Made by a program: the position numbers and the translations under genes. Source: a phage. From it: DNA of 64,000 nucleotides. Location: the NCBI GenBank assembly GCA_018093385.1, contig GCA_018093385.1_4808.1; one strand, given 5' to 3'. Shown piece after piece: positions 7,995 through 54,036 of the stretch (position 1 is its first letter; each line of letters starts with the position of its first letter). Under the pieces are notes generated by a model. It saw only the letters and a list, made by a program, of their open reading frames with translations, did no database searches and was not told where the DNA came from.

Positions 7995-8032
7995 TTTACG
8001 GTCCTCGTTTTGTCGACAACCGTATTATAACC

Positions 8033-8374
8033 TTAATTTCTTTTGAGAGGAATATGACGGTGGCTGCCATTATTTGGTTTAATAATGAGCATAAAAACGA
8101 TTAGAAAGATGATGGCTGATATACTTAATTCAATCAGCGCGGCTTGAGATATAGATTGATCTTCATGATACTGCTTTTGCATTTCTGCTTTCTTCTGAGC
8201 GCAAACTTCAGGTGATATGTAATCGCCTTTTGAGTTGCCATAATAAATTTCGCCATTCTCAGAAATAAGCCTGCCGCAAATATCCGTTTCAGCCTGTGCG
8301 CTTGACATCATAATAACAGTTCCGATGATAGCGGCGATAGTCCAGATTAACAGTTGTGATAAAGTGTTGTTCAT
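8033..8374 (-). CDS. Secreted/membrane-anchored small protein
   Basis: Start MNNTLSQLLIWTIAAIIGTVIMMSSAQA with AGAGG SD; C-terminal hydrophobic segment. Confidence 0.5.
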   Translation of the reverse strand: MNNTLSQLLIWTIAAIIGTVIMMSSAQAETDICGRLISENGEIYYGNSKGDYISPEVCAQKKAEMQKQYHEDQSISQAALIELSISAIIFLIVFMLIIKPNNGSHRHIPLKRN

Positions 8375-8570
8375 AATAACCTCTTTAAATTCCCTTCCCA
8401 TTTCGGGAAGGGTGATAATTATTTTACGCGAAAGAATAGGCGCGTGCCACACAGCGAGTCCCAACGGCCCTCACCATCCCATATCGACCCAACACCAGCA
8501 GCGATTGGGCCAGCAGAATTGGCGGAATTGGCCCAGGCAAGACGTTTCAACTTCCAACTGCACCATCGAT

Positions 8571-8804
8571 TCACAGTTCATCTCCAGATTGCAAAATAAG
8601 ACCCGCATAGAGGATTGCCAAAGCCAAAGGTGCACCACCACCAGCCTCTCTATTCTCTTTGATTTGAAGAGTATCCTTAAGGAATTGCAACTGAACGTTG
8701 AATTCATTTTCAATTCCAAGAACTCCAGCCAATTCTTTTACAGAATCTGCATATGCCTTGTCTAGCAATTCTTTTGGTACTGTTAAAGTCAATTCATTTG
8801 CCAT
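8571..8804 (-). CDS. Hypothetical protein
   Basis: Internal ATG with GGAG SD. Confidence 0.4.
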   Translation of the reverse strand: MANELTLTVPKELLDKAYADSVKELAGVLGIENEFNVQLQFLKDTLQIKENREAGGGAPLALAILYAGLILQSGDEL

Positions 8805-9015
8805 TTTCTTTCCACTCCACAAATGTGCTGCCGCTTGTTTCTCTATTTAGCAGGTATCTGCCGCGCATTCCATGAAGGCTGAATTCAACCGTCGATGGAT
8901 TAGATTTTGAAAGCCATATAGGCTGCCCGTCGAATGGACCGCCTACGCATGTATATTTCGCTTTTGGCTCACTCCTTTTGGGCTGTTTTGCCCGCTCTTT
9001 TATTGATAGTCTCAT
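8794..9015 (-). CDS. Hypothetical protein
   Basis: 73 aa, AGGTG SD. Confidence 0.45.
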   Translation of the reverse strand: MRLSIKERAKQPKRSEPKAKYTCVGGPFDGQPIWLSKSNPSTVEFSLHGMRGRYLLNRETSGSTFVEWKENGK

Positions 9016-9256: not shown

Positions 9257-9285
9257 ATTATAACGCAGACTTTCAGAAAGGCAAA
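9257..9285 (-). promoter_or_regulatory. Promoter TTTGCC-N17-TATAAT for the 9230-to-3896 minus-strand gene set
   Basis: Hexamers with 17-bp spacer in divergent intergenic region. Confidence 0.5.
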
Positions 9286-9377
9286 CTTTTTGTGAATTTT
9301 AATCAAAAAAATGGCCAGAAAAAATCTGGCCGAAAGATCACCCTTTATCCACTACTAAGCTGGAATCATAATTTTAC

Positions 9378-9407
9378 TTGATATAGCTTGTACAAGCAAA
9401 CTATAAT
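9378..9407 (+). promoter_or_regulatory. Promoter TTGATA-N18-TATAAT upstream of large terminase
   Basis: Near-consensus hexamers; implies terminase start may be ATG 9441. Confidence 0.45.
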
Positions 9408-10868
9408 ATGAATAAAATATTAACACATAATTGGAAATTCATGTACCAGTTGAATCCTGCTTTAAAAGAAGTCTGGAAGACAAAAGCGCGATACAAAGTG
9501 ATATACGGCGGTCGTGCATCTTCCAAATCGCACGATGCCGCTGGTTTTGCTATTTATTTGGCGGCAAACTTCAAATTAAAATTCCTTTGCGTTCGACAAT
9601 TCCAGAACAAGATTTCTGAATCTGTATATACTCTATTAAAAGACAAAATAGAGATTTCTGATTTTAAAGATGAGTTCAATTTATTAAAGAACTCTATCGA
9701 ACACAAAAGAACTAAATCTGAATTTCTATTTTATGGTATCGCACGTAACGTTGATGAAATCAAATCAACAGAAGGCGTTGATGTTCTTTGGCTGGAAGAA
9801 GCGCACGCGCTTACTGAAGAACAGTGGGACATTATTGAGCCGACAATACGTAAAGAAGGGTCCGAAATATGGATCATCTTTAACCCTGATGAAGAGGCCG
9901 ATTTCGTATATCAAAACTTTGTTATGCGACCGCCGAAGAATGCCATTGTTAAAAAGATAAACTGGCAAGACAATCCATTTTTGTCGCAAACGATGCTGGA
10001 CGTTATTGCAGGCATGTACGAGCGTGACCCGAAAAAGGCAGAGCACGTTTATGGCGGCGTGCCGAAGACTGGCGGCGACAAATCTGTAATCAACCGCGCA
10101 TTCGTTAAGGCCGCGCTTAATCTACACAAGCACCCCACGCTGGGCTGGAGTTTGTCAGGGTCTAACCGTATAGGCTTTGACGTAGCGGACGATGGCGACG
10201 ACCTTAACGCCACTGCATTCGTCACAGGAAACGTATTGCGCGGCATCAAGACGTGGGAAGGCCTGGAAGATGAATTGTTGAAATCGGCAAGCGGAGTTTG
10301 GAAAGATGCGCTTACATTCGGCGCTTCCATAACTTATGACGCCATCGGTGTCGGCGCTTTTGCTGGTTCAAAATTTGATGAACTAAACGAGTATGCAATA
10401 CATGAAAATCCATCATTTCCAAGAATCGAATTTAATGCGTTCAACGCGCAAGGGTCTGTTGATGATCCTGATGACGTTTTTCTTGAATTACCACACGTTG
10501 AAATACTCAATAAAGACCATTTCGCAAACATAAAAGCGCAAAAATGGACTGAAATTGCAGAGAGATTCAGAAAGACATACGAATATGCAACTGGGCAAGC
10601 CGTATATCCGACTGATGAATTGATTTCAATCGACACCGATGGTATACCGGAACTTGGGATTCCAGCTTGGACTACTGAAGAGATTGAGACGTTTCTTTTT
10701 GAGATGTCAGCGCCGCGCAAGGATACATCTGTTCTTGGTAAGTTCAAAGTTGAATCTAAAAAGGACATGGCAAAGCGCGGAGTCAAATCACCTAACAAAG
10801 CGGACGCAGCAATCATGGCATTGATGAAACCAATCGTTGCAGCATCCGGCTTCTTCTCTAACCTTTAA
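9408..10868 (+). CDS. terL: Terminase large subunit
   Basis: Walker A-like YGGRASSKS, Walker B VLWLEEAH, nuclease-type C-half; canonical position before portal. Confidence 0.85.
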   Translation: MNKILTHNWKFMYQLNPALKEVWKTKARYKVIYGGRASSKSHDAAGFAIYLAANFKLKFLCVRQFQNKISESVYTLLKDKIEISDFKDEFNLLKNSIEHKRTKSEFLFYGIARNVDEIKSTEGVDVLWLEEAHALTEEQWDIIEPTIRKEGSEIWIIFNPDEEADFVYQNFVMRPPKNAIVKKINWQDNPFLSQTMLDVIAGMYERDPKKAEHVYGGVPKTGGDKSVINRAFVKAALNLHKHPTLGWSLSGSNRIGFDVADDGDDLNATAFVTGNVLRGIKTWEGLEDELLKSASGVWKDALTFGASITYDAIGVGAFAGSKFDELNEYAIHENPSFPRIEFNAFNAQGSVDDPDDVFLELPHVEILNKDHFANIKAQKWTEIAERFRKTYEYATGQAVYPTDELISIDTDGIPELGIPAWTTEEIETFLFEMSAPRKDTSVLGKFKVESKKDMAKRGVKSPNKADAAIMALMKPIVAASGFFSNL

Positions 10869-38932: not shown

Positions 38933-39910
38933 TTAAAAATACTCCATATCGGTAATATCACGGAAGCATTTATACAAAGCAGAGCGCGGCACATCAACAA
39001 TGCCAAAGTTAAAGAATTTATACGTTAGATATTTATCGCGATAGTTCTCGCGATTCTCCCAAAGCATTTTTCTCTCTGCCATAGGCATTGAACCAGCGGA
39101 TACGCGGAAAGGAATCATCTCACCTTTTTCATCCACATATTTTGGATTGACGACTACGAATGAGCCAAGGTGTCCTTTCGCAACTAAACCTTCAGCCTCT
39201 TTTGAACGCTTGGTGCGACCCAATTCGTCAATGAATGCTTCGTTGTTGTTCTCCATCATCTCAACGAAGTCTATGATCAATCCTTCTTCATCGGTCCACG
39301 GCTTGTCCTTCCACACATCACGTGACTTCGGCGTCGCGCGGCCATGCTTGTATTTGCCCGTCCAAGACTTGCCATACAAGCCTTCATATCCAAGCTGGTC
39401 TGCTTCGATTTGCATCGCCGCGTACTGTTCCATATTTTCGATGTTTCGATATTCGAGAGCGCGAAGGAATGGGCGTCGACCATGGTTGATGAGATGTTGA
39501 TTAACTTCAGCAACTCTAGCTCGATAGTTTGCATAACGCTTTTCAAAAGGCAGATCAGGTTCGCTAAAGTCATCAAACACCCACCATGTAAAGTTAGTGA
39601 TTGCATCAGTGTTCATGCATGCAGTATAGGCCTGTTGCATGACGTTCTTGTCATTTGGATTGCCGTCGATTAGCTCTCCATCAAGTCCGTGAATTAATTC
39701 ACCCAAGAAGAGGAACTCTTTTTTGATTTGAATGTTGCGCAGCGCCATGCCGGACGTGCCCATTGGCAAGTTGTCATACGCCATTGCGCGTATGCCATCG
39801 ACCTTGAATGACAATCCGCAAGGCAGCGGCACGTCTTCGCCGCGCTCGATTATTTGCTTACGCTGGCAACCCTTCATTGGTTTTAATGCTTTGATTTCTC
39901 CTGCCATCAC
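38933..39910 (-). CDS. ATP-dependent DNA ligase
   Basis: Nucleotidyltransferase motif I KVDGIR; AAGGAG SD. Confidence 0.7.
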   Translation of the reverse strand: MMAGEIKALKPMKGCQRKQIIERGEDVPLPCGLSFKVDGIRAMAYDNLPMGTSGMALRNIQIKKEFLFLGELIHGLDGELIDGNPNDKNVMQQAYTACMNTDAITNFTWWVFDDFSEPDLPFEKRYANYRARVAEVNQHLINHGRRPFLRALEYRNIENMEQYAAMQIEADQLGYEGLYGKSWTGKYKHGRATPKSRDVWKDKPWTDEEGLIIDFVEMMENNNEAFIDELGRTKRSKEAEGLVAKGHLGSFVVVNPKYVDEKGEMIPFRVSAGSMPMAERKMLWENRENYRDKYLTYKFFNFGIVDVPRSALYKCFRDITDMEYF

Positions 39911-40500
39911 TCAAACTCCTTATTCATCACTTGTTCCAGCGCATAGGCGTAAGCCTGATCAGTCGATTTGATAAACGTGCCGTTGTACATGACGCCTTTG
40001 CGGTCTTTGATGTCTTCGTAGGCAGCTTGCGCACAGTCGGATAAGCGAAGGCCATAATCATGAGCTACGCCGGAAAGGTAATCGACTGCGGCCATGATGG
40101 TGACGTCAATATCCATGGTTTGATTCTTGGCAATAGCATCACCAAGTCGTCCAAGGGTCTTTGCCAGGCGAAGGATAAATGAATGAGGGTGAGCGCCTTT
40201 ATCAGCGCAACCGCCGCCATTAATGTTTTCGATTTCAGCACCGTTTTGCGCTGCCAGGATGGTCAACACGACAAGGCAATCGCCAATGTCGTCCTTAATT
40301 GCGGCTTGCAAGTCACAGATGGCCTGCTCTGTATATCCAATTTCGGGGTCGAAGAACACAAGGTCATGGAGTTGATCAACGTGGTCGGTCAACTCCCCAA
40401 ACTCGCTGATAAGCTTCGGGTATTGGTCCTTAAGGTCGCAACCTTGGATGATGTTACGGTCAGAAGCCCACTGGCGAATGTTTGCATAAATCTGGTTCAT
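39907..40500 (-). CDS. MazG-like nucleoside triphosphate pyrophosphohydrolase (putative)
   Basis: EFGELTDHV...DIGDCLVVLTILA and RLAKTLGRLGD segments resemble MazG helices. Confidence 0.45.
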   Translation of the reverse strand: MNQIYANIRQWASDRNIIQGCDLKDQYPKLISEFGELTDHVDQLHDLVFFDPEIGYTEQAICDLQAAIKDDIGDCLVVLTILAAQNGAEIENINGGGCADKGAHPHSFILRLAKTLGRLGDAIAKNQTMDIDVTIMAAVDYLSGVAHDYGLRLSDCAQAAYEDIKDRKGVMYNGTFIKSTDQAYAYALEQVMNKEFE

Positions 40501-41072: not shown

Positions 41073-41933
41073 TTAAAACTCTTCTGCGTCGGCAGGAGTT
41101 TCATTGACAGGACCAGCGGCACCGCTTGCTTCTTCCTGCTTGCTGCGGTCGATGTTAACGTTGCCGCCCACTACGTCATTGTGGAATGCCTTGGCGACTT
41201 CGTACAGACCTTTGTCCTGCACCAGACCTTCCAGCTCAAACTTCAGAACGGACCAGGTGTTGCCGTCTTTGGACTGGGATGCAGTACCCATGCGAACGAT
41301 GTTCATAAAGGTCGGCGGCGTTTTCAAACCTTGCGGAGTTTGAACTTTCTTCTGCTGCAGCGCGGTCATCAGCATACGAGACGGCTTGATCATCGAAGAA
41401 GTCAAAGACAGCATGGCGCTGCCAAATTCACCCGTTTCTTCGTTCAACAGAATCACGAAGTGGTTACGTGTATCTGCATAGTAAGGAGATTTCTTCTCGT
41501 GCACTTTGCCGTTTTCGTCCGGCACAAATACCTTACCGTTGATCTCAACAGCGCGGCCTGCCGCGACTTCTGCATCAACGTGCTCTTTGGTGAATTCACC
41601 TTTAAAGCCTTTGTCGTCGGACTCGCGACCGCCCCAAAGAATGAAGGTACGTTTGAATGCGCAAGGGATGATCTGCACGCCTTTCTTACCGTCATACAAC
41701 TCACCAGTAACGGTGTTGTAAAGCATGCCAGCTTTTGCGCCAGGAACGTGTTTTGGATCATCTTCGTCGACCATAGGAGACATCTTCTGCAGTACGACGA
41801 TAAAAGGAATGGCATATGCATCGGCATCGGCACCTTCAAAACCAGCGCCAAAATCGGTCATGTCGACAAAATCAGCCATAGCGGACATCTGGGTGTTTTT
41901 CACTGCAACTTCGGTAGTTTCTTTCTTAGACAT
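41073..41933 (-). CDS. Putative ssDNA-binding/recombination protein with acidic C-terminal tail
   Basis: C-terminus ETPADAEEF (acidic, terminal Phe, as in SSB and T7 gp2.5 tails); replication-module context. Confidence 0.35.
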   Translation of the reverse strand: MSKKETTEVAVKNTQMSAMADFVDMTDFGAGFEGADADAYAIPFIVVLQKMSPMVDEDDPKHVPGAKAGMLYNTVTGELYDGKKGVQIIPCAFKRTFILWGGRESDDKGFKGEFTKEHVDAEVAAGRAVEINGKVFVPDENGKVHEKKSPYYADTRNHFVILLNEETGEFGSAMLSLTSSMIKPSRMLMTALQQKKVQTPQGLKTPPTFMNIVRMGTASQSKDGNTWSVLKFELEGLVQDKGLYEVAKAFHNDVVGGNVNIDRSKQEEASGAAGPVNETPADAEEF

Positions 41934-41992
41934 TTGATATTTTCCTATAGTATCAAGTTTCGTGGCAACCTGATTTCAAGATAAAGGTTAAA

Positions 41993-42550
41993 TTACTTTT
42001 TGCTTTTAGGCAAGGTTATTTTAGCTTCTTTGTATTCAAAAACGCTAATATCTTCACTAACTGGATTGCCTGCTTCCAGCTGTTCTTTTACAAATGACTT
42101 CAGTGTAGCAGAATGAACGCCTTGTTTCAATGTGGCTTCAACACCATCTTCACGCAGCGCGGCAACAATCTCTTGCGCCTGTTCGATTTCTTCGCGACCG
42201 AACTCAGCCGTGACGCTGGACTTGATCAGGCCGCCGTAACCGTTGTTGACAAGCCAATCGAAAACTTTTAATTCGTTTTCTTTCTTGATCGAAGCATTCA
42301 CCTTGGACTCGACCTTGATTTTGGTCTTGTCCTCAAGCTTGATCTCAGACACGCCAAGCTCATCCATAACGCCAGGAAGCAGAACAGTTTTGATTTCACT
42401 GATTCGCTGCTTTTGCATATCAGCTTCATCTTCAAGCTCTGTCAAAGCTTCTTGGCGTTCTGCCAGTTCAGATACTAAGCGCGCAAGGCGCTCTTGAATG
42501 CTCTCAGGAGCGACCTGCGGCAAATCATCTTCCCAATTAATATTGCTCAT
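41993..42550 (-). CDS. Hypothetical coiled-coil protein
   Basis: 185 aa, GAAGG SD. Confidence 0.45.
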   Translation of the reverse strand: MSNINWEDDLPQVAPESIQERLARLVSELAERQEALTELEDEADMQKQRISEIKTVLLPGVMDELGVSEIKLEDKTKIKVESKVNASIKKENELKVFDWLVNNGYGGLIKSSVTAEFGREEIEQAQEIVAALREDGVEATLKQGVHSATLKSFVKEQLEAGNPVSEDISVFEYKEAKITLPKSKK

Positions 42551-44408: not shown

Positions 44409-44827
44409 TACAATTCCTCTAAATACTTGATGATGTGATGAATAGTTCCCTTCACGATTATCTCACGTTGAACGTCTGCAGTATTATAACGCTTTAATTC
44501 AATAGAAGGGTGGACTAAATAAAACATCTTCTCAGAATCAACCTTAAGCAGAACAAATGATGGGTATTTCCAATCATTCCACGAAGAAAGAAAGCTGCAT
44601 TGGCCTTTCTCAAATGCATTTCTGAAAGGTGCAGTGGTGGCCCTTGCAGGCCACGATTCAAAGAACTTCATTTCAAGCCAAAAGCCGCGCCCTTTCCGGT
44701 TGGTGCCGATTACGTCCGGCACGCCATCGCCCGTCATTGACTCGATTCGTTGAAGCTTCAATACCGATTCTGAATGCTTCTTCAAAGGCACGAATATGTA
44801 TTTCTGCTCACGGTTATTTGTTGCCAT
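44408..44827 (-). CDS. VRR-NUC domain nuclease
   Basis: GVPD...LEMK PD-(D/E)xK-type motif; adjacent to SNF2 helicase. Confidence 0.6.
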   Translation of the reverse strand: MATNNREQKYIFVPLKKHSESVLKLQRIESMTGDGVPDVIGTNRKGRGFWLEMKFFESWPARATTAPFRNAFEKGQCSFLSSWNDWKYPSFVLLKVDSEKMFYLVHPSIELKRYNTADVQREIIVKGTIHHIIKYLEEL

Positions 44828-47711
44828 CTGGATACACCTGTTTGATCACGTCAACGATGAACATATCAATGCCTTCAAGCTTGCGACCTTTCATCAGGAA
44901 GAATGCGCCGTTCCCGACGTTTTCAGCGATGTACTTCCCGTACTTCTGGAACTTCTCTGGACGAATCCTGAAGCGCATTGGCGAGTCGGTCGAGTCGTCT
45001 TTGCACATAAGGTCGATGAACTGAGTCTCAAGCTTGTTCCCGTACTGGTCAAACTCTGCGTAGCGGCCATCAGCTTGAAGACCCTTTTTAAGCTTGCCGT
45101 GCTTTGTATAGATGCCGCGCTCAAGTCGTTTACGGATGCGTGTTGCTTCGTTCTCGTCCGCAAGCACTTTCTTTGTCAACTTGCCGATTACTATTGCGCG
45201 CTCGTCATCACCGACTTCCTTCATCTGGCGTATTGAAGCGCCGGACGTCACACCAATCAGATACGGGTCATTATACGCCCAGCCGAACTTTGTGTGCATC
45301 TCTGTAAGGTCGCCGTATTTTACTTCAGCATTGGCCAATGCGTCCTTTTGCTTCTGCGTTAAGGTTCCGGCTTCACGCGCTTCGATATACTTCATCGCTT
45401 TCACCATGCCGTACCCTTTCGCATTCATGATGCCGCCGATTAGCTTTCCGTTCGCGATGGTCCAGTTCATTGAAGAGTGATCAGGGTCGATTGGCACATA
45501 ATCCACACCTTCCTTCGCAAGTTCACGTAATATCGCAATCGTCTGGTCTTCGTCCTTAGCAGCGCGTAAGCAGGCTGCGGCAAATTCCAACGGGTAGTGT
45601 CGCTTAAGCCACAAGGTCCAGTAGGTCACGACCGCGTATGACACGGAGTGTGACTTGTTAAAGCCCCATGACCCGAACGTGGCCATCGCTTGCCAAAGCT
45701 TTCTTGCATCCGCTTCCGGTACGCCGTTATTGATTGCGCCTGCAACAAAGTCCTCGCCAAGCTTGTTAAAGTATTCTTCACCCTTACGGCCTGACATCGC
45801 CTTACGCACAGCTGACGTTTTCGCCCAGTCAAATGAACCAATCTCTTTAACCACGGCCATGATTTGCTCTTGGTAAAGAAACACGCCGTAAGTCTCTTTC
45901 AAGTACGGCTCAAGCTGCGGCACGTCGTACTCAATCGGCGCACGTCCTGCCGCGCGTTCAATGTATTTCTGGGCCATACCGGATGACAACGGGCCAGGTC
46001 GACCCAAAGCTGTCAGGTTGTCGATTTTGTTAAAGTTGTCGACGTGCACAAAGTTTGTTACTGAGCGTACAGCATCACCTTCAAACTGGAAGATGCCTGA
46101 CATCTTGTTTTCGTTAAGAATGTCAAGGACGCTTTGATCATCAAGTTTGATTCCGTAGAGCGTTTCAGCATCAATAACGCCTGTATCAGAAATAATGCCG
46201 AGAGTACGAAGGCCCAGCGCATCAAGCTTCAAAAGGTTGAGGTATTCACTGTCAGGCTTATCGATTTGCGCAATCCCTTCTGCAGTTACAGTACAGTAAT
46301 CAGAGATTGGGTCATTACACACAATGATGCCCGCTGCGTGAACACCTGTGTGAGACGGGTGAATCTCAAGGTCACCCATGCAACGCGCGGCGTCAGGATA
46401 TTTCGCCACGAACTCTTGGCCCGTGGTCGTTGTTGCAAAGGTATCCTCCAGGCCGTGACCATAACGGGCGTCACCGGATGAGTATTCAAGCAATGCGTTT
46501 TTAATGTTGGCCGTTTCGTGGTATCCAATGTTGAACTTCTTACCAACCTGCGCCATTACTGAGTTGGCCTTAAGAGTGTTGATGTTGCCAAGCTTCGCAA
46601 CGTTCATTTCGCCGTATTTCTCTTTAAGATAATCAAACACCATATAGCGTTTGGTATCTTCAAAGTCGATGTCGATGTCAGGAAGGTCGGCGCGGCTTAC
46701 GTCGATGAATCGGGCAAACAGCAGCTTATACGGGATTGGGTCCACTTCCGTGATGCCGAGGCAATAGCAAACAAGTGAACCGGCCGATGAGCCGCGAGCA
46801 GGACCGACGAGCATTTTTGTTTTTGCGAATCGTACAAGGTCCGCTACTACCAGAAAGTATGAGTCGAAATCTTTCAGCTGAATCTGGTGAATTTCTTCGT
46901 TGAAGCGGTCCTCGTATTCCTGAGTCCATTCTTTGATGTGACCTGCTTTTAGACGGTACTCCATGCCCTCGCGAGCAAGCTTTACCATGTCACCAGCAAG
47001 TTGAATAATCGGTGCCTTACGCAATTTCAGGTCAAGTCCGACTATGCCGTTTGCTATGTCAACAGCATTGGCCGTTGCCTGATTGAGCTCGTCTTCAGTC
47101 AAGATGCCTTTAAGCTGTTTGCGCAAGTCTTCCGAGTCAACGATGCAGTGCGGCTTGACCGTGTCGCGCACTTCCCAAGCATAAGCGAAGTCAACGTGCT
47201 CAGGAGAAGGCATGTGATTGTATCCGGTTAAAACCAGCGGCCTTCCGTTGCTGCGGTGAGCCAACACCTGGCGCTTAGCCAAAAGGAACGACGATGGGTT
47301 GACGTCTATATAGTCGTAGTCCTCTGGCCGCAGCAGCTCCACGGCACCGCCACAGAATTTAACGACGCCATCAAGCGCACCGAACTCTGCACGGGTAAGC
47401 CCACCGCGCTGCGTTGAAAGTGTTGTAGCGTTGTAAAAAGATTTTAAGTCAAGGGCCAATATCCAAGCCTTCGGTTTGAATCCCTTTTTAGGGTCCGCAT
47501 CAGGGTCGATGATTGGAATCTCCATTCCAAACATAGGCTTAATATCATTTTTCTGGCATTCCTTTTCCCAGCGAACGTGACCCCATGTGTTGTTATCAAC
47601 TAATGCCGCGACTTCGCAGCCCAACTCTTTGAGCCGTGCTATAATTTCAGGATGCCGTCCATAAACTTCTTTGAACGTGTAACCGCTGCGAACTCTCAAT
47701 TGTGGAAACAT
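44814..47711 (-). CDS. dnaE: DNA polymerase III alpha subunit-like replicative polymerase (DnaE-like, PHP domain)
   Basis: 965 aa; PHP-like N-terminus, DIDIDFED segment, polymerase core. Confidence 0.75.
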   Translation of the reverse strand: MFPQLRVRSGYTFKEVYGRHPEIIARLKELGCEVAALVDNNTWGHVRWEKECQKNDIKPMFGMEIPIIDPDADPKKGFKPKAWILALDLKSFYNATTLSTQRGGLTRAEFGALDGVVKFCGGAVELLRPEDYDYIDVNPSSFLLAKRQVLAHRSNGRPLVLTGYNHMPSPEHVDFAYAWEVRDTVKPHCIVDSEDLRKQLKGILTEDELNQATANAVDIANGIVGLDLKLRKAPIIQLAGDMVKLAREGMEYRLKAGHIKEWTQEYEDRFNEEIHQIQLKDFDSYFLVVADLVRFAKTKMLVGPARGSSAGSLVCYCLGITEVDPIPYKLLFARFIDVSRADLPDIDIDFEDTKRYMVFDYLKEKYGEMNVAKLGNINTLKANSVMAQVGKKFNIGYHETANIKNALLEYSSGDARYGHGLEDTFATTTTGQEFVAKYPDAARCMGDLEIHPSHTGVHAAGIIVCNDPISDYCTVTAEGIAQIDKPDSEYLNLLKLDALGLRTLGIISDTGVIDAETLYGIKLDDQSVLDILNENKMSGIFQFEGDAVRSVTNFVHVDNFNKIDNLTALGRPGPLSSGMAQKYIERAAGRAPIEYDVPQLEPYLKETYGVFLYQEQIMAVVKEIGSFDWAKTSAVRKAMSGRKGEEYFNKLGEDFVAGAINNGVPEADARKLWQAMATFGSWGFNKSHSVSYAVVTYWTLWLKRHYPLEFAAACLRAAKDEDQTIAILRELAKEGVDYVPIDPDHSSMNWTIANGKLIGGIMNAKGYGMVKAMKYIEAREAGTLTQKQKDALANAEVKYGDLTEMHTKFGWAYNDPYLIGVTSGASIRQMKEVGDDERAIVIGKLTKKVLADENEATRIRKRLERGIYTKHGKLKKGLQADGRYAEFDQYGNKLETQFIDLMCKDDSTDSPMRFRIRPEKFQKYGKYIAENVGNGAFFLMKGRKLEGIDMFIVDVIKQVYPDGNK

Positions 47712-48253
47712 TATTTACTCCAGATGTCATATACGCCAATTTGTTGGCAGACTTTGTGCAGTAATATTACGTCGTCTAATGCACGGTGCTTCTGTTCATA
47801 TTTTCCGAAATATAATTCATACAGCTCTTGAAGCTTAACTCTTCGGCCAAAAATAGGCAAGGTTTGCTCAACTGTACATATGTTTATTTCTGGAAAATTA
47901 ACATCATCAAGCGTAAGTCCTTCGCGCTGTAGTGCATAATCAAGAATGTTTTTATCGAACGCATGGTTGTGCGCGATAGTTGCATCAGTCTTCTTGAAGA
48001 TTTCTTTTAGCTGCGGGACGAAATTGATGAACGGTGGATTGCACTCAAGGTCTTCATTTGTTAATCCGGTAATCTTTGTGATGATTTCTTCGATCACGAT
48101 TTCAGGATTAATTATGAATTCAAACGTTTCAAGAATCTCTTTGCCGTCTGTCAGCAAGCCTGCAAATTCAATAGGGCGCGGCTGCATTCCAAGCGGCGCT
48201 TTCGGGTGCACGGTTAATCCGGTTGTTTCGAAGTCATAAGGGAGAAATAACAC
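47711..48253 (-). CDS. DnaQ-like 3'-5' proofreading exonuclease (GTG start)
   Basis: Exo motifs YDFETTGL, HNHAFD, HRALDD; AGGAGG SD. Confidence 0.75.
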   Translation of the reverse strand: MLFLPYDFETTGLTVHPKAPLGMQPRPIEFAGLLTDGKEILETFEFIINPEIVIEEIITKITGLTNEDLECNPPFINFVPQLKEIFKKTDATIAHNHAFDKNILDYALQREGLTLDDVNFPEINICTVEQTLPIFGRRVKLQELYELYFGKYEQKHRALDDVILLHKVCQQIGVYDIWSK

Positions 48254-48263
48254 ATTGGCCTCC

Positions 48264-48292
48264 TACAAAAAGGCCGCCCATTAGGACGGCCA
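48264..48292 (-). terminator. Rho-independent terminator between the enzyme island and the exonuclease gene
   Basis: GGCCGTCC-loop-GGGCGGCC followed by TTTTTG on minus strand. Confidence 0.55.
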
Positions 48293-48307: not shown

Positions 48308-48859
48308 TTATACAGTGTACGGAGTACCGTCTTGATTTAAGCGCACGATAAACTTCAAATCAACGCCGATGATTTCACGCGTATCAAAGATCACATAGTT
48401 GTAACGACGTTGACCAGCAATGTTCGGGTTGGTATGAGAGTCAGTTACAACTTCCTGTGCAACCTGAATACCTTCTTCGCTAAAGAACTTACGCCATTCA
48501 GCAAGTTCAGCGGCAGTCACGTGCATACCAAGGTGGCTGACCTGATTGTCATGCGCATCGATATATTCGATGTTTTCGTTAATCCAGTTGCAGCCCATTG
48601 TGTAGTCAAGGATTTCAAGCTCAAGAGGCTTACCAGCGCCGCCATCAGTACCGTTGCCAGCCTGATAGTTGAAGCGCAAGTCAGCTTCATTGGTGCAATC
48701 GTCGCGACGACCTTTAAAGTCATCAGCTTCAAATACGCGACCAGTAGCAACAACATGATCATGGAACCATTCTGTCAGGCCGATTTTAGCCAAGAAATCC
48801 TGTGCGCGCTGAGCATCTGGAATTGACAGGGCGATTTGTTCAATTTTAAAATGTGGCAT
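48308..48859 (-). CDS. VOC-fold (glyoxalase/dioxygenase-like) protein, putative
   Basis: Two beta-alpha-beta-like modules; weak motif-level call. Confidence 0.35.
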   Translation of the reverse strand: MPHFKIEQIALSIPDAQRAQDFLAKIGLTEWFHDHVVATGRVFEADDFKGRRDDCTNEADLRFNYQAGNGTDGGAGKPLELEILDYTMGCNWINENIEYIDAHDNQVSHLGMHVTAAELAEWRKFFSEEGIQVAQEVVTDSHTNPNIAGQRRYNYVIFDTREIIGVDLKFIVRLNQDGTPYTV

Positions 48860-48955
48860 TTTGTTTCCTTAATTAAATATTATTGATTAATTACTGTGTT
48901 GTCTTCGTCCTGTTTCTTTTCAGGAGCGGGTGTGACAACTTCAAATGTTCGTGAT

Positions 48956-49639
48956 TTATTTACCAAATGGAATATCAGTACCAGACATAAAGCGCCATGC
49001 GCCTGTAATTAAGATATGGCGAATGAAGTCAGCAATTACTTGCGGCTCAGTCTCCAATCCATTCATCAATGCCTTTTTCTGGTATTCAGCGGCGTATTCA
49101 GGAGTCCAGCCGCGAGTCGCGCAAACTGCATCTTCAATCTGTTTAGACATGCCAGTGCCGCGCAACTTGTTAGGACTAATAGAGAATACCGTGATGCCGT
49201 ACTTAGGCGTAAGTTCGTGAGCCATCTGCTTGCTGATCATAAGCGCAGCGGCCTTGGATGCATTATAACACAAGCTGGACGTCATAGGAATATGCGCAGC
49301 GTTGGAAACGATGTTGATCACAAAGCCTTTGTTGTCGATAAGACTTTTCAGCGCAGCCTGAGTCGTGTTAACGAAAGAGAATGCGTTGGTGTGCATAACG
49401 CGGTTAAACTCTTCATAGTTTACATCTTCAAACCAATTGTTAGAGTTGACACCAGCACAGTTGATCAAGCCTTCAACATCATATGGGCTTAAAATTTCTT
49501 TCATCTGTTTAGCATCGCGGACGTCATATCCGTATGCTGAATCGATGCCAAGCACGTTATGACCGTAAGCGCCAAGGGTGTCAAAAATAGATTTACCAAG
49601 ACCGGAATTGGAACCTGTTACAACAATTACTTTTTTCAT
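48956..49639 (-). CDS. Short-chain dehydrogenase/reductase (classical SDR)
   Basis: TGSNSGLG, NCAG, YNASK motifs. Confidence 0.7.
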   Translation of the reverse strand: MKKVIVVTGSNSGLGKSIFDTLGAYGHNVLGIDSAYGYDVRDAKQMKEILSPYDVEGLINCAGVNSNNWFEDVNYEEFNRVMHTNAFSFVNTTQAALKSLIDNKGFVINIVSNAAHIPMTSSLCYNASKAAALMISKQMAHELTPKYGITVFSISPNKLRGTGMSKQIEDAVCATRGWTPEYAAEYQKKALMNGLETEPQVIADFIRHILITGAWRFMSGTDIPFGK

Positions 49640-49660
49640 TTATTTATCCTTTTTGGACTT

Positions 49661-49704
49661 CGTTTCGATGAGGTAAATATAACTCATCGAAACGCACAAG
49701 TAAA
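49661..49704 (-). promoter_or_regulatory. Promoter TTTACT-N17-TATATT with 12-bp perfect inverted repeat (49661-49672 / 49683-49694) centred on the -10
   Basis: Read directly on minus strand upstream of SDR gene. Confidence 0.5.
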
Positions 49705-50580
49705 CTATTTATTGAAATTAATATTATGGGTGTTTACAAGACGTTCACACATGGCGCTATAAACACCATCGTCGTGTATTGAGTCTTCGTGCTTCAGGCC
49801 GCTGATTGCGAAGCGTGTAAGCTTGACAATCTTAAGCTCGAACAGATGCCACATGTGGTAGTCTTCCGGTGTTTTCAGCGTCACGCCATTAGGGAACAGT
49901 ACCTGCATAACCTGACCTACCATCACAGCGTTATCGCCATAGACAGCGTTGCGCTCACGGAAGGTCGCGGCCATCGCATCAAGAATATCGGCGGCGGTTG
50001 CTGGGCCTTGTGGTTCAACTTCAACAACTTTAGTCTCTTCTTTCCCTGTTGCGCTTGGATCAACTGCTAATTGCTGCACCATTTCACCTGCCTTGCAAAG
50101 ATTAAATGTAAAAGCGATTTTATTTTGAGCAACGGAATTATAATACAAGGCTTCATCTTGCATCGCCGCGAGTACGTCTTGTCGGTCGTCGAATACATTA
50201 ATGATTCGATAATCGCCGTGCCGCAAAGCGTGCGATAGCCATCCAGATTTCATAATAGTTGATGGACGTTTGTCGCCAGAGTCTCTCATCTTGATTGTAA
50301 ATTCATCAAAAGGGAAAACATTGTCCAGACGTTCAAAAGTCACTTGTCTGTATTTTTCTGGCCTTGCAGTCCAATATTCAACCGCCTCACCGCGAAGAGA
50401 TGCCGACTCTACTGCTGATGCAATGTGAGGATAGAACTGATCATAACCAATACCGCTGTGATAGTCATCATAGTCTGACAACGGACCTGCCACCTTGATG
50501 CGGTCTAAGCGCCAACGGTCATCAAACAGCGTTCCGTCAAGGTCGAATACGTTTAAGATTTCGCTGTTTTTAATGCTCAT
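49705..50580 (-). CDS. HAD-superfamily phosphatase-like protein with uncharacterised C-terminal domain
   Basis: HAD motif I DLDGTL near N-terminus. Confidence 0.5.
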   Translation of the reverse strand: MSIKNSEILNVFDLDGTLFDDRWRLDRIKVAGPLSDYDDYHSGIGYDQFYPHIASAVESASLRGEAVEYWTARPEKYRQVTFERLDNVFPFDEFTIKMRDSGDKRPSTIMKSGWLSHALRHGDYRIINVFDDRQDVLAAMQDEALYYNSVAQNKIAFTFNLCKAGEMVQQLAVDPSATGKEETKVVEVEPQGPATAADILDAMAATFRERNAVYGDNAVMVGQVMQVLFPNGVTLKTPEDYHMWHLFELKIVKLTRFAISGLKHEDSIHDDGVYSAMCERLVNTHNINFNK

Positions 50581-51380
50581 CCTTTTGATACTCCATCTTT
50601 AGCAACTGGATTGTTGGTGATTGGCATTGCACTCCAAAACTGGATGCGCAACTCTTCTTGCTGTGCCGTGGTATCCATCCAATCACGATACCAAGGGCAA
50701 TGGGCTTTGCCATGACGAGGAAACGCGCACTTACCCATACCGATGCACTGGGGCTGTAGTAAAGGATTGGCCCACGGGTGCACCTTAAGGACTTCCGCAA
50801 CCATTGCACGGAATACTTCTTGATACTCGCCTTGAGTACGCGTGCACAAGCGGTTAGAGGCCATTTGTTGCAGAGTGCGCAAGTTGAACTTTGCCATGAT
50901 ATGCGTTTGCATATTAGAAGGCAACACGGCACGTGCATCTTGAATCTCTGCGCCAGCCGCGCGAAGTTCTTGGTATAGGGCGTCAATGGTTGCCATTGCA
51001 TCATCCCATTTCTCTGCCAGTTCAGCAGCCTTCTCGTCATGACGAGTCCATCCCTTTGGATCATCCTCTGGGTAAGTAAATTTGGCAGGACGAATCGCAT
51101 CAAATGCTGACGACTCCTGAGCGCGGCTTGTGCGTTCTTGATATGCACCTGTGCGTGTGCGCACCATCTGATGAGTCATATTCTTTGATACATCAGTGAT
51201 GTCAAAGATATAGTCCACAAAGTCAAAAGGCGACTTGATTGTATCAAGCATGTAGCGCCAGTGCTCTTGCTTCTCTGATTCTGTCATCTCAGAGACTGGC
51301 TTACCAGTCATGCGCGTGTTCTTTGTTTCCAGCAAAAGGTCAAGTGCATCTTGGGTGTATCGAATTAATTCAACTTTCAT
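50577..51380 (-). CDS. thyX: Flavin-dependent thymidylate synthase (ThyX-like)
   Basis: VRTRTGAYQERTSR resembles the ThyX RHR...S...R signature. Confidence 0.55.
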   Translation of the reverse strand: MKVELIRYTQDALDLLLETKNTRMTGKPVSEMTESEKQEHWRYMLDTIKSPFDFVDYIFDITDVSKNMTHQMVRTRTGAYQERTSRAQESSAFDAIRPAKFTYPEDDPKGWTRHDEKAAELAEKWDDAMATIDALYQELRAAGAEIQDARAVLPSNMQTHIMAKFNLRTLQQMASNRLCTRTQGEYQEVFRAMVAEVLKVHPWANPLLQPQCIGMGKCAFPRHGKAHCPWYRDWMDTTAQQEELRIQFWSAMPITNNPVAKDGVSKG

Positions 51381-51393
51381 TTTAATTATCCTA

Positions 51394-51840
51394 TTAACGG
51401 TAATTCACTAGTTGCTGATCACCAGAGAAGGTGCAATGATAAACGAATTGTGCGTTATAAAGCAACTGAAAACTTTTCTTTGGTTCATTATTAGAACTCA
51501 TTGATGTAAAGATTTCTGCACCAGAACGGTTTTCACCAATCAGGTTAATAAAGCCGCCAGTTGAACGAGGCTGAACGAAAGTGAAACGCTGCATCCACGG
51601 AGTCCGGTTGGCACCTTTTCCGGTGAATCCCTGAATCTGAATATTCAGACCTTCTTGCTCGTTCACACCGATGTAAGTGGTAATTGTTGCGCCAGTCGTC
51701 GCTGCGGTCTTGCCGTCCATCGCTTCGCAATCGTAAACAGCGATTGAATCGGAAGTACGGACAGCGGCTTCAGTCGCTTCCATATACATGGTTCCGAGAA
51801 TAGCAGTCGCGGCAAGCGCGATTCCAGTGATGCGTTTCAT
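51394..51840 (-). CDS. Secreted protein of unknown function
   Basis: Signal peptide MKRITGIALAATAILGTMYMEATEAA; AGAGGAAA SD. Confidence 0.5.
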   Translation of the reverse strand: MKRITGIALAATAILGTMYMEATEAAVRTSDSIAVYDCEAMDGKTAATTGATITTYIGVNEQEGLNIQIQGFTGKGANRTPWMQRFTFVQPRSTGGFINLIGENRSGAEIFTSMSSNNEPKKSFQLLYNAQFVYHCTFSGDQQLVNYR

Positions 51841-51858
51841 TTTCGTTTCCTCTATGAG

Positions 51859-51905
51859 TTCTGCTTCAATGATTAAAGTATACGCCCATTGAAGCAGAAA
51901 GCAAA
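51859..51905 (-). promoter_or_regulatory. Promoter TTTGCT-N17-TATACT with 13-bp perfect inverted repeat (51859-51871 / 51887-51899) flanking the -10
   Basis: Read directly; same architecture as 49661-49704. Confidence 0.5.
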
Positions 51906-52901
51906 TTATTTATTAGCAATATAAGCAAATTTTTGATAGTTATTTGCTTTGATGAGTTTTTCAACTTCAGCAAGGTCATGAGCGACGTCATCAAGCAAAA
52001 TGTTTCGCCAAGTAGCGAATCGACCGACACTAAATACGTTCAAATCCATAGTCAACTGGAGCAGTAAGGCGTGGCGCAAGTCTTTCGGAATGTCGACAAT
52101 TTTGCCATACTTCTGGTCAACCTTTTCAACTTCTTCCAAAGAGATGTCATTCCATGAAAGACCAAAAGCGGTAAGAACTTCATCCACTTCTGCACGCAGC
52201 TTCATGTCGCGATAACGGGTAATGCCGCCAGCGGCTTCAACTGCTGCCGCGCTGACGCTTACCAATGGAATTGTTTCAATGATCAGCGTGTCACCAGTGA
52301 TTGATGCGCGGTAAGTCCTTACAGAATAGTCAGGGAAGTAAATTGTTTGATAAAGTTCACACTTGCGCTTAATCTTAAAACGATAAACGCGAATATTTGC
52401 CTTATCAAACGAGAAGTCGAGCTTTTGATCAATACCAGCAAGCTTCATCATGACTGGCAGCGGCGATGTGTTGATGATTGGCGTCTCGCTATAGCCGCAA
52501 AGCGTGTCGACCGGAGTATTAAAGAATATACGGTCACCCAGTTTATCGACAAGTTGATCATAAAAGTCATCCGGCGCTATGTAGCGCGTAGCAGTTTGAA
52601 GCTTCATGATTGAGCGGCTGCCAAACTGGTTGGTGACTTTCATAGAGTACATATTGGCAAGGTTAATCGGGCAGTGGCCGTGATAGTAGTTGCCACGAAA
52701 ATACACAGCCTTATCGACTGTCACGGCCTTAAAGGGGATTCCGGTAATACGGCTTACTTCTTCGCCGCGAAATCGTAGCAGCGCCTTGTGCTGCGCGACG
52801 CGTTCGCCTGCTTCGTACACAATAGAGTTCGGAAAGTGACAAGCCGTGATAAGTCCTGCCAGTCCGCCGCCGATAATCATTACAGGTTGTTTCATGTTCA
52901 T
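51906..52901 (-). CDS. FAD/NAD(P)-binding oxidoreductase (UDP-galactopyranose mutase / amine-oxidase-like fold, putative)
   Basis: N-terminal Rossmann IIGGGLAGL; C-terminal GRFATWRNILLDDV resembles the family tail. Confidence 0.5.
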   Translation of the reverse strand: MNMKQPVMIIGGGLAGLITACHFPNSIVYEAGERVAQHKALLRFRGEEVSRITGIPFKAVTVDKAVYFRGNYYHGHCPINLANMYSMKVTNQFGSRSIMKLQTATRYIAPDDFYDQLVDKLGDRIFFNTPVDTLCGYSETPIINTSPLPVMMKLAGIDQKLDFSFDKANIRVYRFKIKRKCELYQTIYFPDYSVRTYRASITGDTLIIETIPLVSVSAAAVEAAGGITRYRDMKLRAEVDEVLTAFGLSWNDISLEEVEKVDQKYGKIVDIPKDLRHALLLQLTMDLNVFSVGRFATWRNILLDDVAHDLAEVEKLIKANNYQKFAYIANK

Positions 52902-52978: not shown

Positions 52979-53006
52979 GAAAAAAGACCCACAACTAGTG
53001 TGGGTC
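52979..53006 (-). terminator. Rho-independent terminator (GACCCACA-loop-TGTGGGTC, U6 on minus strand)
   Basis: Perfect 8-bp stem and AAAAAA on plus strand. Confidence 0.7.
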
Positions 53007-53034: not shown

Positions 53035-53877
53035 TTATTCTGCTTGATCGTCGTGCTCTTCGGCATCTGCTTCGGATTCAACATCGATGAACTCGATGTG
53101 GCCCATCTCTTCCAGTTTGCTCAGGTAAGAGCGAACTGAAGCGCCAAACAGCTGATCTTTAACTTTTTCACCCAGCTCGTCGATAGACTGCGGCTGACCG
53201 ATTTCACCTTCTTTGATCGCAGCCAGTACGCGACCACGGGTGGAATGTTCTTGCGGCTGGCTCAGGCCGTTTCCGGTGTAAACAAAGTGAGTTGCTTTAG
53301 CGCGACGCTGACCATTAGCTTTCTTGGCGGCTTTACGCTCTGCAATCGCTTTGCGACGCTCTTCAGCTTCTTTCTTACGCTGTTCTTTCTGTTGTTCTGC
53401 AGCTTCTTTCGCCGCGATCTTAGCAGCTTCACGCTCTGCCTTGCGTTTCGCTTTCGCTTCTTCTTTAGCCTTTTCTTTTTCGGCTTTCGCTTCTGCACGG
53501 GCCTGATCACGTTCAGCCTTTTTCGCCGCAGCTTGTTCAGCTTTCAGGCGCTTGGCTTCTTCTTTCGCCTTTGCCTTTTCAATTTCTTTAGCGGCTTTAG
53601 CGGCTTCACGCTCTGCCTTCTTAGCAGCAGCCTTTTCAGCACGCTCTGCAGCCTTCTTAGCGGCTTCTTCAGCACGCTTCTGAGCCTTCTCGTCAGCAGC
53701 CTGCTTGCGTTTCAGCGCAGCTTCTTCACGCTTGGCTTGTTTTTCCTGCTCACGCTTCTGGCGTTTTTCTTCGGCTTCTTTCTTTTTAGCCAGGCGTTTT
53801 TCTTCAGCCACGCGACGACGTTCTGCTGCGGCTGCTTGTTTTTCTTCTTTAGATAATACTTTGATTGCTTCGGCCAT
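53035..53877 (-). CDS. Lys/Ala/Glu-rich low-complexity protein with globular C-terminal domain
   Basis: About 190 aa of KAE repeats then about 85 aa of normal composition; ATG 53877 has AAGGA SD (ORF track 53883 is GTG). Confidence 0.5.
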   Translation of the reverse strand: MAEAIKVLSKEEKQAAAAERRRVAEEKRLAKKKEAEEKRQKREQEKQAKREEAALKRKQAADEKAQKRAEEAAKKAAERAEKAAAKKAEREAAKAAKEIEKAKAKEEAKRLKAEQAAAKKAERDQARAEAKAEKEKAKEEAKAKRKAEREAAKIAAKEAAEQQKEQRKKEAEERRKAIAERKAAKKANGQRRAKATHFVYTGNGLSQPQEHSTRGRVLAAIKEGEIGQPQSIDELGEKVKDQLFGASVRSYLSKLEEMGHIEFIDVESEADAEEHDDQAE

Positions 53878-54036
53878 ATTCACAGTCCTTAAATAAATTA
53901 GTTTATTTTATATTCCCCGTTTGGGATAACTTAATTATGCCTTCAGTCGCCGCCAGTAGCAACTAAAAACTATGGCGGCAATGCCACTTTAATTAAACTG
54001 ATTTTCAGTTTTATTTTTCGTAAATTTACGTCAACA

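Follow-up and report, generated by a model that had tools for sequence, protein, structure and literature searches.

A conserved ThyX- and flavoprotein-encoding operon beside the replicase genes of Wifcevirus and related phages, a candidate for thymidine hypermodification

Among the closest described counterparts of the gene cluster studied here are the thymidine hypermodification pathways of phages M6, ViI, SP10, PhiW-14, and PaMx11, in which part of the thymidine, depending on sequence context, gives way to a derivative with a bulky adduct on the C5-methyl group, so that restriction enzymes are blocked, and in which flavoproteins and exocyclic-methylene chemistry take part (PMC8989533). Two further points of reference are the base J pathway and the Pseudomonas phages F8 and 14-1 of the genus Pbunavirus. 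The cluster occupies positions 48308-52901 of a stretch of phage DNA of 64,000 nucleotides (GenBank assembly GCA_018093385.1, contig GCA_018093385.1_4808.1), the whole of which is called the window below. The window derives from a Wifcevirus, an Escherichia coli myovirus; its best match over the cluster is Bas101, with 96.3% identity, and 29 Wifcevirus genomes, each about 68 kb long and belonging to myoviruses of E. coli or Shigella, match this region at 92 to 96% identity. An initial annotation, made from the sequence of the window alone, had listed six consecutive open reading frames (ORFs) on the minus strand, and all six are present exactly where it placed them. It had also taken them for a set of enzymes forming an island of unusual content within the replication genes. 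We find instead that five of the six genes form a conserved operon beside the DNA polymerase genes of a large phage group. We further propose, tentatively and at somewhat less than an even chance, that this operon makes a thymidine hypermodification.

The pathways of the M6 and ViI type use a ThyA-type dUMP hydroxymethylase, a 5-hydroxymethyldeoxyuridine (5-hmdU) DNA kinase, and an aGPT-Pplase. None of these was detected in the Bas101 annotation or in Pfam and PHROG scans for modification enzymes, which covered unannotated ORFs of about 130 amino acids and longer. In contrast to those pathways, the module here encodes a ThyX homologue, a flavoprotein resembling UDP-galactopyranose mutase (UGM), a fusion of a haloacid dehalogenase (HAD) domain with DUF6378, and, optionally, a short-chain dehydrogenase/reductase (SDR) together with a protein of the vicinal oxygen chelate (VOC) superfamily. 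The base J pathway, with its JBP thymine dioxygenase and glucosyltransferase, leads to a sugar-bearing thymine at a subset of thymine positions, as the module here would. However, the window yielded neither a TET/JBP dioxygenase nor a glycosyltransferase, and the module has flavoenzymes in place of an iron- and 2-oxoglutarate-dependent enzyme. The ten largest unannotated ORFs of the window, examined for ThyA-type enzymes, TET/JBP proteins, kinases, and glycosyltransferases, gave no Pfam enzyme match at an E value of 0.01 or below. As none of these modification-enzyme families emerged from the scans, the genes of the block are the sole visible candidates for making a sugar-bearing thymidine. 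The thymidine-oligosaccharide system of Carin-5 and YerA41 was considered as a match and set aside, being a different, ThyA-based system. No paper linking the genes of the block to thymidine modification was found in the literature. A genuine UGM does serve DNA glycosylation in another phage (PMC13326640), and the exocyclic-methylene intermediate of ThyX-type enzymes is discussed as one that nucleophiles can capture (PMC8989533).

The Pbunaviruses, or PB1-like phages, are distant relatives of Wifcevirus (PMC11990801). The DNA of F8 resists enzymes with TG in their recognition sites, and F8 and 14-1 contain new nucleosides of 362 and 390 Da, with about a quarter of the thymidines replaced. The authors of that work, a 2025 preprint on END nucleases, read the nucleosides as thymidine derivatives, one with a sugar alcohol derived from erythrose or threose and one with a cyclized aldopentose, stress the absence of known modification genes, and report that the modification governs sensitivity to END nucleases (PMC12191111). 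By our own arithmetic, 362 Da corresponds to 5-hmdU plus a tetritol minus water or to deoxyuridine with a 1-deoxypentitol chain, and 390 Da to 5-hmdU plus a pentose minus water or to deoxyuridine with a C-hexosyl group; the two assignments for each mass are isomers, inseparable by mass alone. Both phages carry the core of the operon, with ORF65 encoding the flavoprotein, ORF59 the ThyX homologue, and ORF57 the HAD-DUF6378 protein, followed by DnaQ and DnaE. These core genes are orthologous to those of Wifcevirus and stand in the same order. The two lineages differ in that the product is known for Pbunavirus, which has no SDR or VOC gene, whereas Wifcevirus is known here from its genes alone. 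Between 14-1 and F8, the HAD-DUF6378 proteins are 79% identical and differ by a 16-amino-acid indel, while the neighboring proteins are 94 to 99% identical. In this one region, the only one compared, the divergence is suggestive, but not decisive, as a source of the difference between 362 and 390 Da. On the Wifcevirus side, Bas98 to Bas101 resist the restriction-modification systems tested in the BASEL study, by a mechanism that is not known, and are insensitive to all tested defense systems except EcoP1_I (PMC11990801). The resistance contrasts with the presence of 19 EcoRI and 6 EcoKI sites in the window.

The arrangement of the operon was followed through 80 IMG/VR loci that encode a homologue of the flavoprotein (39 to 98% identity) and that were searched by tblastn with the window proteins. 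Fifty-six of them contain the flavoprotein, DUF6378, and DnaQ and cover the whole interval. All 56 have the same order and strand, namely, flavoprotein, ThyX, HAD-DUF6378, optionally SDR and then VOC, DnaQ, and the alpha subunit of DNA polymerase III (Pol III), with proteins about 40 to 60% identical to the window copies. Wherever the flank extends for 4 kb or more, in 57 of 57 loci, the ThyX gene lies downstream of the flavoprotein gene, at a median gap of 388 nucleotides. SDR and VOC genes are both present in 38 of the 56 loci and both missing from 16, including Pbunavirus, and one occurs without the other in only 2; the pair is gained or lost as one unit. Annotated phages of Pseudomonas, Serratia, Pantoea, Erwinia, Xanthomonas, Xylella, Luteibacter, Burkholderia, and Aeromonas show the same arrangement. 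In a Rhizobium phage of 206 kb, the flavoprotein, ThyX, and HAD-DUF6378 fusion genes are clustered with genes for dUTPase and ribonucleotide reductase. The notion of a foreign island is thus contradicted both by this syntenic core and by the GC content of the block (0.44 to 0.47), which equals that of the flanks and of the rest of the window. Far from being unusual in a phage replication block, these genes are a fixed part of the replication module in this lineage.

The flavoprotein gene opens the conserved module. Its product probably falls in the UGM, protoporphyrinogen oxidase (PPOX), and amine oxidase fold class, and it matched no Pfam family at an E value of 0.1 or below, GLF and NAD_binding_8 included. 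Searches of the PDB with phmmer and with profiles matched only the GxGxxG segment. The family is large, with more than 1100 protein clusters, and has many invariant Arg, Lys, and Tyr residues. UGM-type enzymes form an adduct between flavin N5 and the anomeric carbon of the sugar, whose ring is opened. The gene that separates the flavoprotein from ThyX in the window encodes a protein of 148 amino acids that the initial annotation had called secreted. Its N terminus does resemble a signal peptide when the sequence is read by eye, without a predictor. It has no enzyme signature and no match in Pfam, PHROG, or NCBIfam, however, and the cluster is not one of six enzymes. By tblastn, this protein occurs solely in 29 Wifcevirus records and in no plasmid, and it is missing from all of the non-Wifcevirus loci from IMG/VR. 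The gene is a genus-specific insert in a variable slot, outside the conserved module; in Pbunavirus, the same slot holds five unrelated small ORFs.

The second gene of the module encodes a homologue of the flavin-dependent thymidylate synthase ThyX. Thy1 (PF02511) covers its full length (E=1.2e-30, profile positions 2-191 of 191), as in canonical ThyX, for example, TM0449 of Thermotoga maritima, and the dUMP- and flavin adenine dinucleotide (FAD)-binding residues are shared as well. Unlike canonical ThyX, the window protein scores 83.1 bits against TIGR02170, below the equivalog cut-off of 87.9, and instead of the signature RHRx7S it has R74-T75-R76 followed by T84. Residues were compared by HMMER alignment to TM0449 and then in an alignment of 69 clade sequences; the T. 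maritima numbering was checked against the HMMER alignment. All 69 sequences have T, S, N, or Q in place of the His of the RHR motif. At the position of the motif Ser, 51 of them have T, 15 have S, and 3 have A. Published structures have H53 of ThyX stacking on the folate, and the equivalent of this residue is Ile in 68 of the 69 sequences. Further clade-wide changes, in T. maritima numbering, are H59 to F, Y91 to V or A, and H178 to R. Retained as invariant or nearly so are Q75, R78, R80, R90, R147, N163, R165, R174, and E182, the residues that bind the dUMP phosphate, the uracil, and FAD. The window protein is a real ThyX-fold nucleotide enzyme, though it may or may not be an ordinary thymidylate synthase. 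A last difference from canonical ThyX is that the gene here is always paired with that of the UGM-like flavoprotein. The C-terminal part of the protein, residues 212-228, also has a cluster of cysteines (C212, C218, and C228) with a His nearby. Only about half of the clade has this possible metal site, which canonical ThyX lacks.

The third gene had been annotated simply as a HAD protein. The HAD domain is real, but the C-terminal DUF6378 half of what is a two-domain fusion had been overlooked. The HAD domain scores 34.5 bits against PF25109, above the cut-off of 27.6, and D13 and D15 of its DxDxT nucleophile motif are invariant. A profile built from 56 sequences matched, in the PDB, the phosphatase domains of Pnkp1 of Clostridium thermocellum (4xrp, 7.6e-8) and of T4 polynucleotide kinase (1ltq, 1.6e-5), as well as 5uj0. 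The HAD fold, the DxDxT motif, and matches to Pnkp phosphatase profiles are shared with T4 Pnkp and with the 5'(3')-deoxyribonucleotidases of the NT5C type. However, no P-loop 5'-kinase domain of the kind present in T4 Pnkp was found in the fusion protein, whose C-terminal half is DUF6378, and the label "polynucleotide kinase/phosphorylase" that GenBank gives to such proteins claims too much. In an AlphaFold2 model of the fusion protein, with a predicted local distance difference test score of 89.8, the C-terminal domain is a four-helix bundle. DUF6378 (PF19905) was matched by 11 of 15 family members, with a best E value of 4.1e-6, the window copy lying below the HMMER reporting filters. No other part of the block is as well conserved: across loci, its median identity to the window copy is 59%, whereas the flavoprotein reaches 43% and the HAD domain 31%. 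Searching the PDB with the DUF6378 domain, by sequence and by profile, was uninformative, and a fold search with the model of the fusion returned matches to the HAD part alone. A MazG-like pyrophosphatase was tried as a relative of DUF6378 and rejected, since hhalign comparisons with the MazG proteins of the window and of a Gordonia phage gave nothing.

The assignment of the SDR as such was upheld, as were those of HAD and ThyX, by matches to adh_short (2.6e-31), PF25109, and Thy1, respectively. The SDR has the motifs TGSNSGLG (for TGxxxGxG) and NCAG (NNAG-like), and its catalytic tetrad N85-S112-Y125-K129 is invariant in 46 sequences. Asp33, conserved in at least 90% of the sequences, suggests NAD(H) rather than NADPH as the cofactor. 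Sugar, polyol, and 3-oxoacyl reductases head the NCBIfam matches, all of which fall below the cut-offs of their subfamilies. The idea that the SDR is an alternative folate or pteridine reductase was abandoned: FolM and PTR1-type enzymes are missing from the top 25 NCBIfam matches, Asp33 is of the NAD type, and the gene follows VOC rather than ThyX, being absent from 16 of the 56 loci that retain ThyX. ThyX releases tetrahydrofolate, so that dihydrofolate reductase is not needed. The VOC assignment is probable for the family, of which 20 of 39 members match Glyoxalase_4 with a best E value of 6.7e-6, and is weak for the window protein itself (E=0.004, 17.8 bits versus a cut-off of 27). This family has 690 proteins, and neither sequence nor profile searches found a relative of the VOC protein in the PDB. 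Three residues, Q8, E82, and H109, never vary, and a fourth, D167, is present in at least 90% of the sequences; these are putative ligands in the pattern of a VOC metal site. The pattern resembles the Gln/Glu/His/Glu site of human glyoxalase I.

Comparable sets were found next to DnaE in three genera of actinophages, where an FAD-Rossmann protein, a HAD nucleotidase, and an SDR adjoin DnaE and the ThyX gene lies elsewhere in the genome. Microbacterium phage RikSengupta (3779-7094) has genes for an FAD-Rossmann protein, a HAD phosphatase, an SDR, a VOC protein, and, directly after the VOC gene, a standalone DUF6378, followed by DnaE; a GT2 glycosyltransferase and ThyX are encoded downstream. 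Among these actinophages, it is the only one in which homologues of VOC and DUF6378 were found. Gordonia phage Gibbin (2632-6684) and Mycobacterium phage Benzema (4515-7711) share the order FAD protein, NT5C-type 5'-nucleotidase, S-adenosylmethionine-dependent methyltransferase, small unknown protein, SDR, DnaE, and ThyX, and the HAD copy of the Mycobacterium phage passes the cut-off for NT5C 5'(3')-deoxyribonucleotidase. The actinophage flavoproteins, 36% identical to one another, are positional equivalents and possibly distant homologues of the window family. With its added methyltransferase and glycosyltransferase genes, the variety among the actinophages looks like that of a diversifying biosynthetic pathway.

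From the gene identities, the operon boundaries, the synteny, the co-variation, and the clade-specific active-site changes, all of which were observed directly, we infer a link to DNA modification and a catalytic role for each protein. A thymidine hypermodification is favored by the conserved operon linked to ThyX and DnaE, by the flavoenzymes and the phosphatase, and by the lack of other visible candidates, all of it circumstantial. The block is the form that an ancient collinear operon, always located directly upstream of the DnaQ and DnaE genes, takes in Wifcevirus. By our proposal, it would encode a pyrimidine-nucleotide and sugar pathway that builds an adduct akin to the tetritol and pentose thymidines found at TG in the virion DNA of F8 and 14-1. 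The ThyX-clade enzyme would carry out flavin-mediated carbon chemistry at C5 of dUMP, the UGM-like flavoprotein would handle the sugar, and the HAD domain would remove phosphate from a sugar-phosphate or nucleotide intermediate, with DUF6378 as an essential nucleotide-handling partner. SDR and VOC would form an optional tailoring pair for redox and isomerization steps, setting the adducts of Wifcevirus and of the Serratia and Xanthomonas phages apart from that of Pbunavirus. The Wifcevirus adduct is thus predicted to be related to the Pbunavirus one and differently tailored, and the modification would account for the resistance of Wifcevirus to restriction-modification systems. The come-and-go pattern of the SDR-VOC pair, the methyltransferase, and the glycosyltransferase, together with the adduct difference between F8 and 14-1, fits a diversifying tailoring under arms-race selection. 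The initial annotation had named no known pathway and had raised a DNA-modification route among its options; that option, though not proven, is strengthened by the conserved operon and by the unexplained hypermodification of Pbunavirus.

A more specific form of the proposal concerns the two flavoenzymes. Their known relatives both work through covalent flavin-N5 carbon adducts, with a methylene in the case of ThyX (PMC8989533) and the anomeric carbon of a ring-opened sugar in the case of UGM. The ThyX-clade enzyme and the UGM-like flavoprotein might together perform a new flavin-dependent alkylation of the nucleobase, placing a sugar-derived carbon unit at or through C5 of uracil or thymine, an idea that we regard as unlikely. 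The route would pass through a flavin-N5 sugar iminium or through capture of the exocyclic methylene intermediate by a sugar hydroxyl. HAD-DUF6378 would then process a phosphorylated intermediate, and SDR-VOC would diversify the sugar, with the pentose and tetritol thymidines of Pbunavirus as products.

Several observations weigh against a hypermodification made by this operon. Part of the synteny stems from the common descent of these phages, and the 80 loci do not count as independent in phylogenetic terms. In the actinophage flavoproteins, only the flavin motifs near the two termini can be aligned with the window family (hhalign probability, 49% for the N-terminal and 62% for the C-terminal one). 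With all dUMP- and FAD-binding residues kept, the ThyX homologue may simply make thymidylate in the ordinary way. The TG-context specificity of the Pbunavirus modification implies a step at the level of DNA, whereas free nucleotides are the usual substrates of ThyX and of HAD nucleotidases; no DNA-recognizing component was identified. The sugar-alcohol adduct of F8 is made in a phage without SDR or VOC, so that the pair is not needed for the reduction there. Wifcevirus resists EcoRI in vivo (PMC11990801), whereas the DNA of F8 is cut by EcoRI (PMC12191111); the phenotypes are thus not alike and may have separate origins. The literature searched gave no DNA chemistry or restriction digests for Wifcevirus.

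The chief competitor to a thymidine hypermodification is an ordinary module for nucleotide supply and pool sanitation that serves the DnaE replicase, which we consider rather doubtful but far from negligible. In such a module, ThyX would make dTMP, HAD-DUF6378 would hydrolyze unwanted deoxynucleoside tri- and monophosphates, and the flavoprotein would assist ThyX, for instance by reducing flavin or providing one-carbon units. The SDR and the VOC protein would be auxiliary metabolic or detoxifying enzymes, and any modification of virion DNA would be encoded elsewhere. Activities of this sort (dUTPase, dTTPase, and dNMPase) occur in other phages. The full-length Thy1 match with its intact dUMP and FAD pocket argues for this reading, as do the nucleotide and polynucleotide phosphatase families of the HAD domains, including the NT5C copy of the Mycobacterium phage, the dUTPase and ribonucleotide reductase neighbors in the Rhizobium phage, and the association with DnaE at every locus. 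However, the invariable coupling of ThyX to a flavoprotein of the UGM/PPOX fold is left unexplained, as are the loss of the folate-stacking His and of the RHR His and the tailoring-like turnover of SDR and VOC, methyltransferase, and glycosyltransferase. Nor does it offer candidate genes for the hypermodification of Pbunavirus or the restriction resistance of Wifcevirus.

Alternatively, there may be no single pathway, the genes being independent accessories kept adjacent through vertical inheritance of the replication module. All of the loci were found through one protein family and all lie in related phages of the DnaE type, the flavoprotein-ThyX slot does hold unrelated small ORFs such as the Wifcevirus-only 148-amino-acid protein, and the evidence for promoters is at chance level. 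We nevertheless think this quite improbable, since the genes hold to one order and strand in all 56 loci, with proteins about 40% identical and neighboring slots turning over, SDR and VOC come and go as a pair, and a comparable set recurs in three actinophage genera. HAD and DUF6378, moreover, are fused in the proteobacterial phages and are separate neighbors in the Microbacterium phage, a classic sign of functional linkage. A counter-defense module that destroys a host antiviral small molecule or nucleotide, for example a chain-terminating or signaling nucleotide, first with a pyrophosphatase or phosphatase and then through redox and isomerase steps, strikes us as the most remote of these ideas. 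A phosphatase, a putative nucleotide-binding helical domain, and oxidoreductases could form such a degradative route, which would suit the broad insensitivity of Wifcevirus to defense systems other than EcoP1_I (PMC11990801). Against it, the unvarying association with ThyX and DnaE speaks for a role in DNA-precursor metabolism and not in the degradation of a signal, and, as a weaker point, no likeness to a known anti-defense enzyme was seen, no search having been aimed at PADLOC or anti-defense libraries. We therefore retain, at the strength given above, a thymidine hypermodification made by the operon.

The coordinates of the features discussed are collected in Table 1. The block is flanked by two strong intrinsic-terminator-like hairpins, and the record of phage Mansfield has terminators annotated at the positions of both. 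The one between the VOC and exonuclease genes, read on the minus strand from 48291 to 48272, is the terminator that had been noted from the sequence. The promoters claimed for the block are not supported, as 11 sigma-70-like sites were counted, compared with 9.8 +/- 2.8 in shuffled sequence. Within the module, the stop codon of ThyX and the start codon of HAD-DUF6378 overlap by 4 nucleotides (50577-50580), and the start of Pol III alpha abuts the stop of DnaQ at 47711, which suggests translational coupling in each of the two pairs.

Table 1. Positions of the genes, domains, and hairpins of the block and its surroundings (window coordinates unless another genome is named)
Feature	Position	Strand	Basis or remark
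DnaE-type Pol III alpha	44814-47711	-	downstream of DnaQ-like exonuclease
DnaQ-like exonuclease	47711-48253	-	directly downstream of module
Intrinsic-terminator-like hairpin between VOC and DnaQ-like exonuclease genes	48272-48291	-	GGCCGTCC-TAAT-GGGCGGCC then TTTTTGT
Divergent, probable VOC-superfamily protein (glyoxalase/dioxygenase fold), 183 amino acids	48308-48859	-	Glyoxalase_4 E=0.004; conserved residues
Classical SDR, 227 amino acids	48956-49639	-	adh_short 2.6e-31; phrog_3142
HAD-DUF6378 fusion protein, 291 amino acids	49705-50580	-	PF25109 + PF19905
C-terminal DUF6378 four-helix domain	49705-50013	-	PF19905, family matches
N-terminal HAD domain, T4 Pnkp-type phosphatase	50056-50580	-	PF25109
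ThyX-clade homologue, 267 amino acids, variant motif R74-T75-R76	50577-51380	-	Thy1 1.2e-30
148-amino-acid protein, signal-peptide-like N terminus	51394-51840	-	no Pfam/PHROG/NCBIfam match
FAD-type flavoprotein, probable UGM/protoporphyrinogen oxidase/amine oxidase fold class, 331 amino acids	51906-52901	-	phrog_4828
Intrinsic-terminator-like hairpin upstream of block, after Lys/Glu/Ala-rich gene	52986-53006	-	GACCCACA-CTAGT-TGTGGGTC then TTTTTT
HAD-DUF6378 gene region compared	14-1 (L002) 9276-10292; F8 (L087) 7772-8836		

Small differences between Wifcevirus genomes occur inside the block: in phage Mansfield, an additional ORF of 71 amino acids (6573-6788) separates the VOC gene from the SDR gene, in place of the gap of 96 nucleotides in the window, and Bas98 and several further Wifceviruses carry small insertions. 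Directly upstream of the flavoprotein gene, and kept in PB1-like phages, lies a gene (53035-53883, minus strand) for a low-complexity protein of 282 amino acids, rich in Lys, Glu, and Ala and ending in a short globular C terminus (phrog_4765). This gene is the source of a strong AT skew (-0.38) in its kilobase, and its product may be a histone-H1-like DNA binder. Also on the minus strand are a conserved pair of genes in the replication region at 41073-42550, one Pam3 gp34-like (PF23977, E=4e-86) and one gp33-like (DUF7307), a MazG-like pyrophosphatase at 39907-40500, and an ATP-dependent DNA ligase at 38933-39910. Outside the block and the replicase pair, the last two are the only recognizable nucleotide enzymes. 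Restriction sites in the window number 19 for EcoRI, 3 for EcoRV, 6 for EcoKI, and 84 for EcoP1I. Counted per strand and set against expectation from composition, XbaI sites number 1 versus about 18, BsaI sites 1 to 2 versus 13, EcoRV sites 3 versus 18, GATC 110 versus 247, and HindIII sites 51 versus 18; the TA dinucleotide has an observed-to-expected ratio of 0.68.

Pbunaviruses are among the most used therapeutic Pseudomonas phages, and Wifceviruses are candidates for the biocontrol of E. coli O157. One small conserved operon is now a candidate both for the Pbunavirus modification and for the restriction resistance of Wifcevirus. If the proposal is right, the operon would represent a ThyX-based, flavoenzyme-driven route of hypermodification, distinct from the routes that rely on ThyA, kinases, and transferases. 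It would also give functions to DUF6378 and to a flavoprotein family of this size and would make it possible to predict modified DNA in uncultured phages from a genomic marker. Should the alkylation idea also prove true, this chemistry would be widespread in PB1-like phages of many Proteobacteria and possibly in three genera of actinophages.

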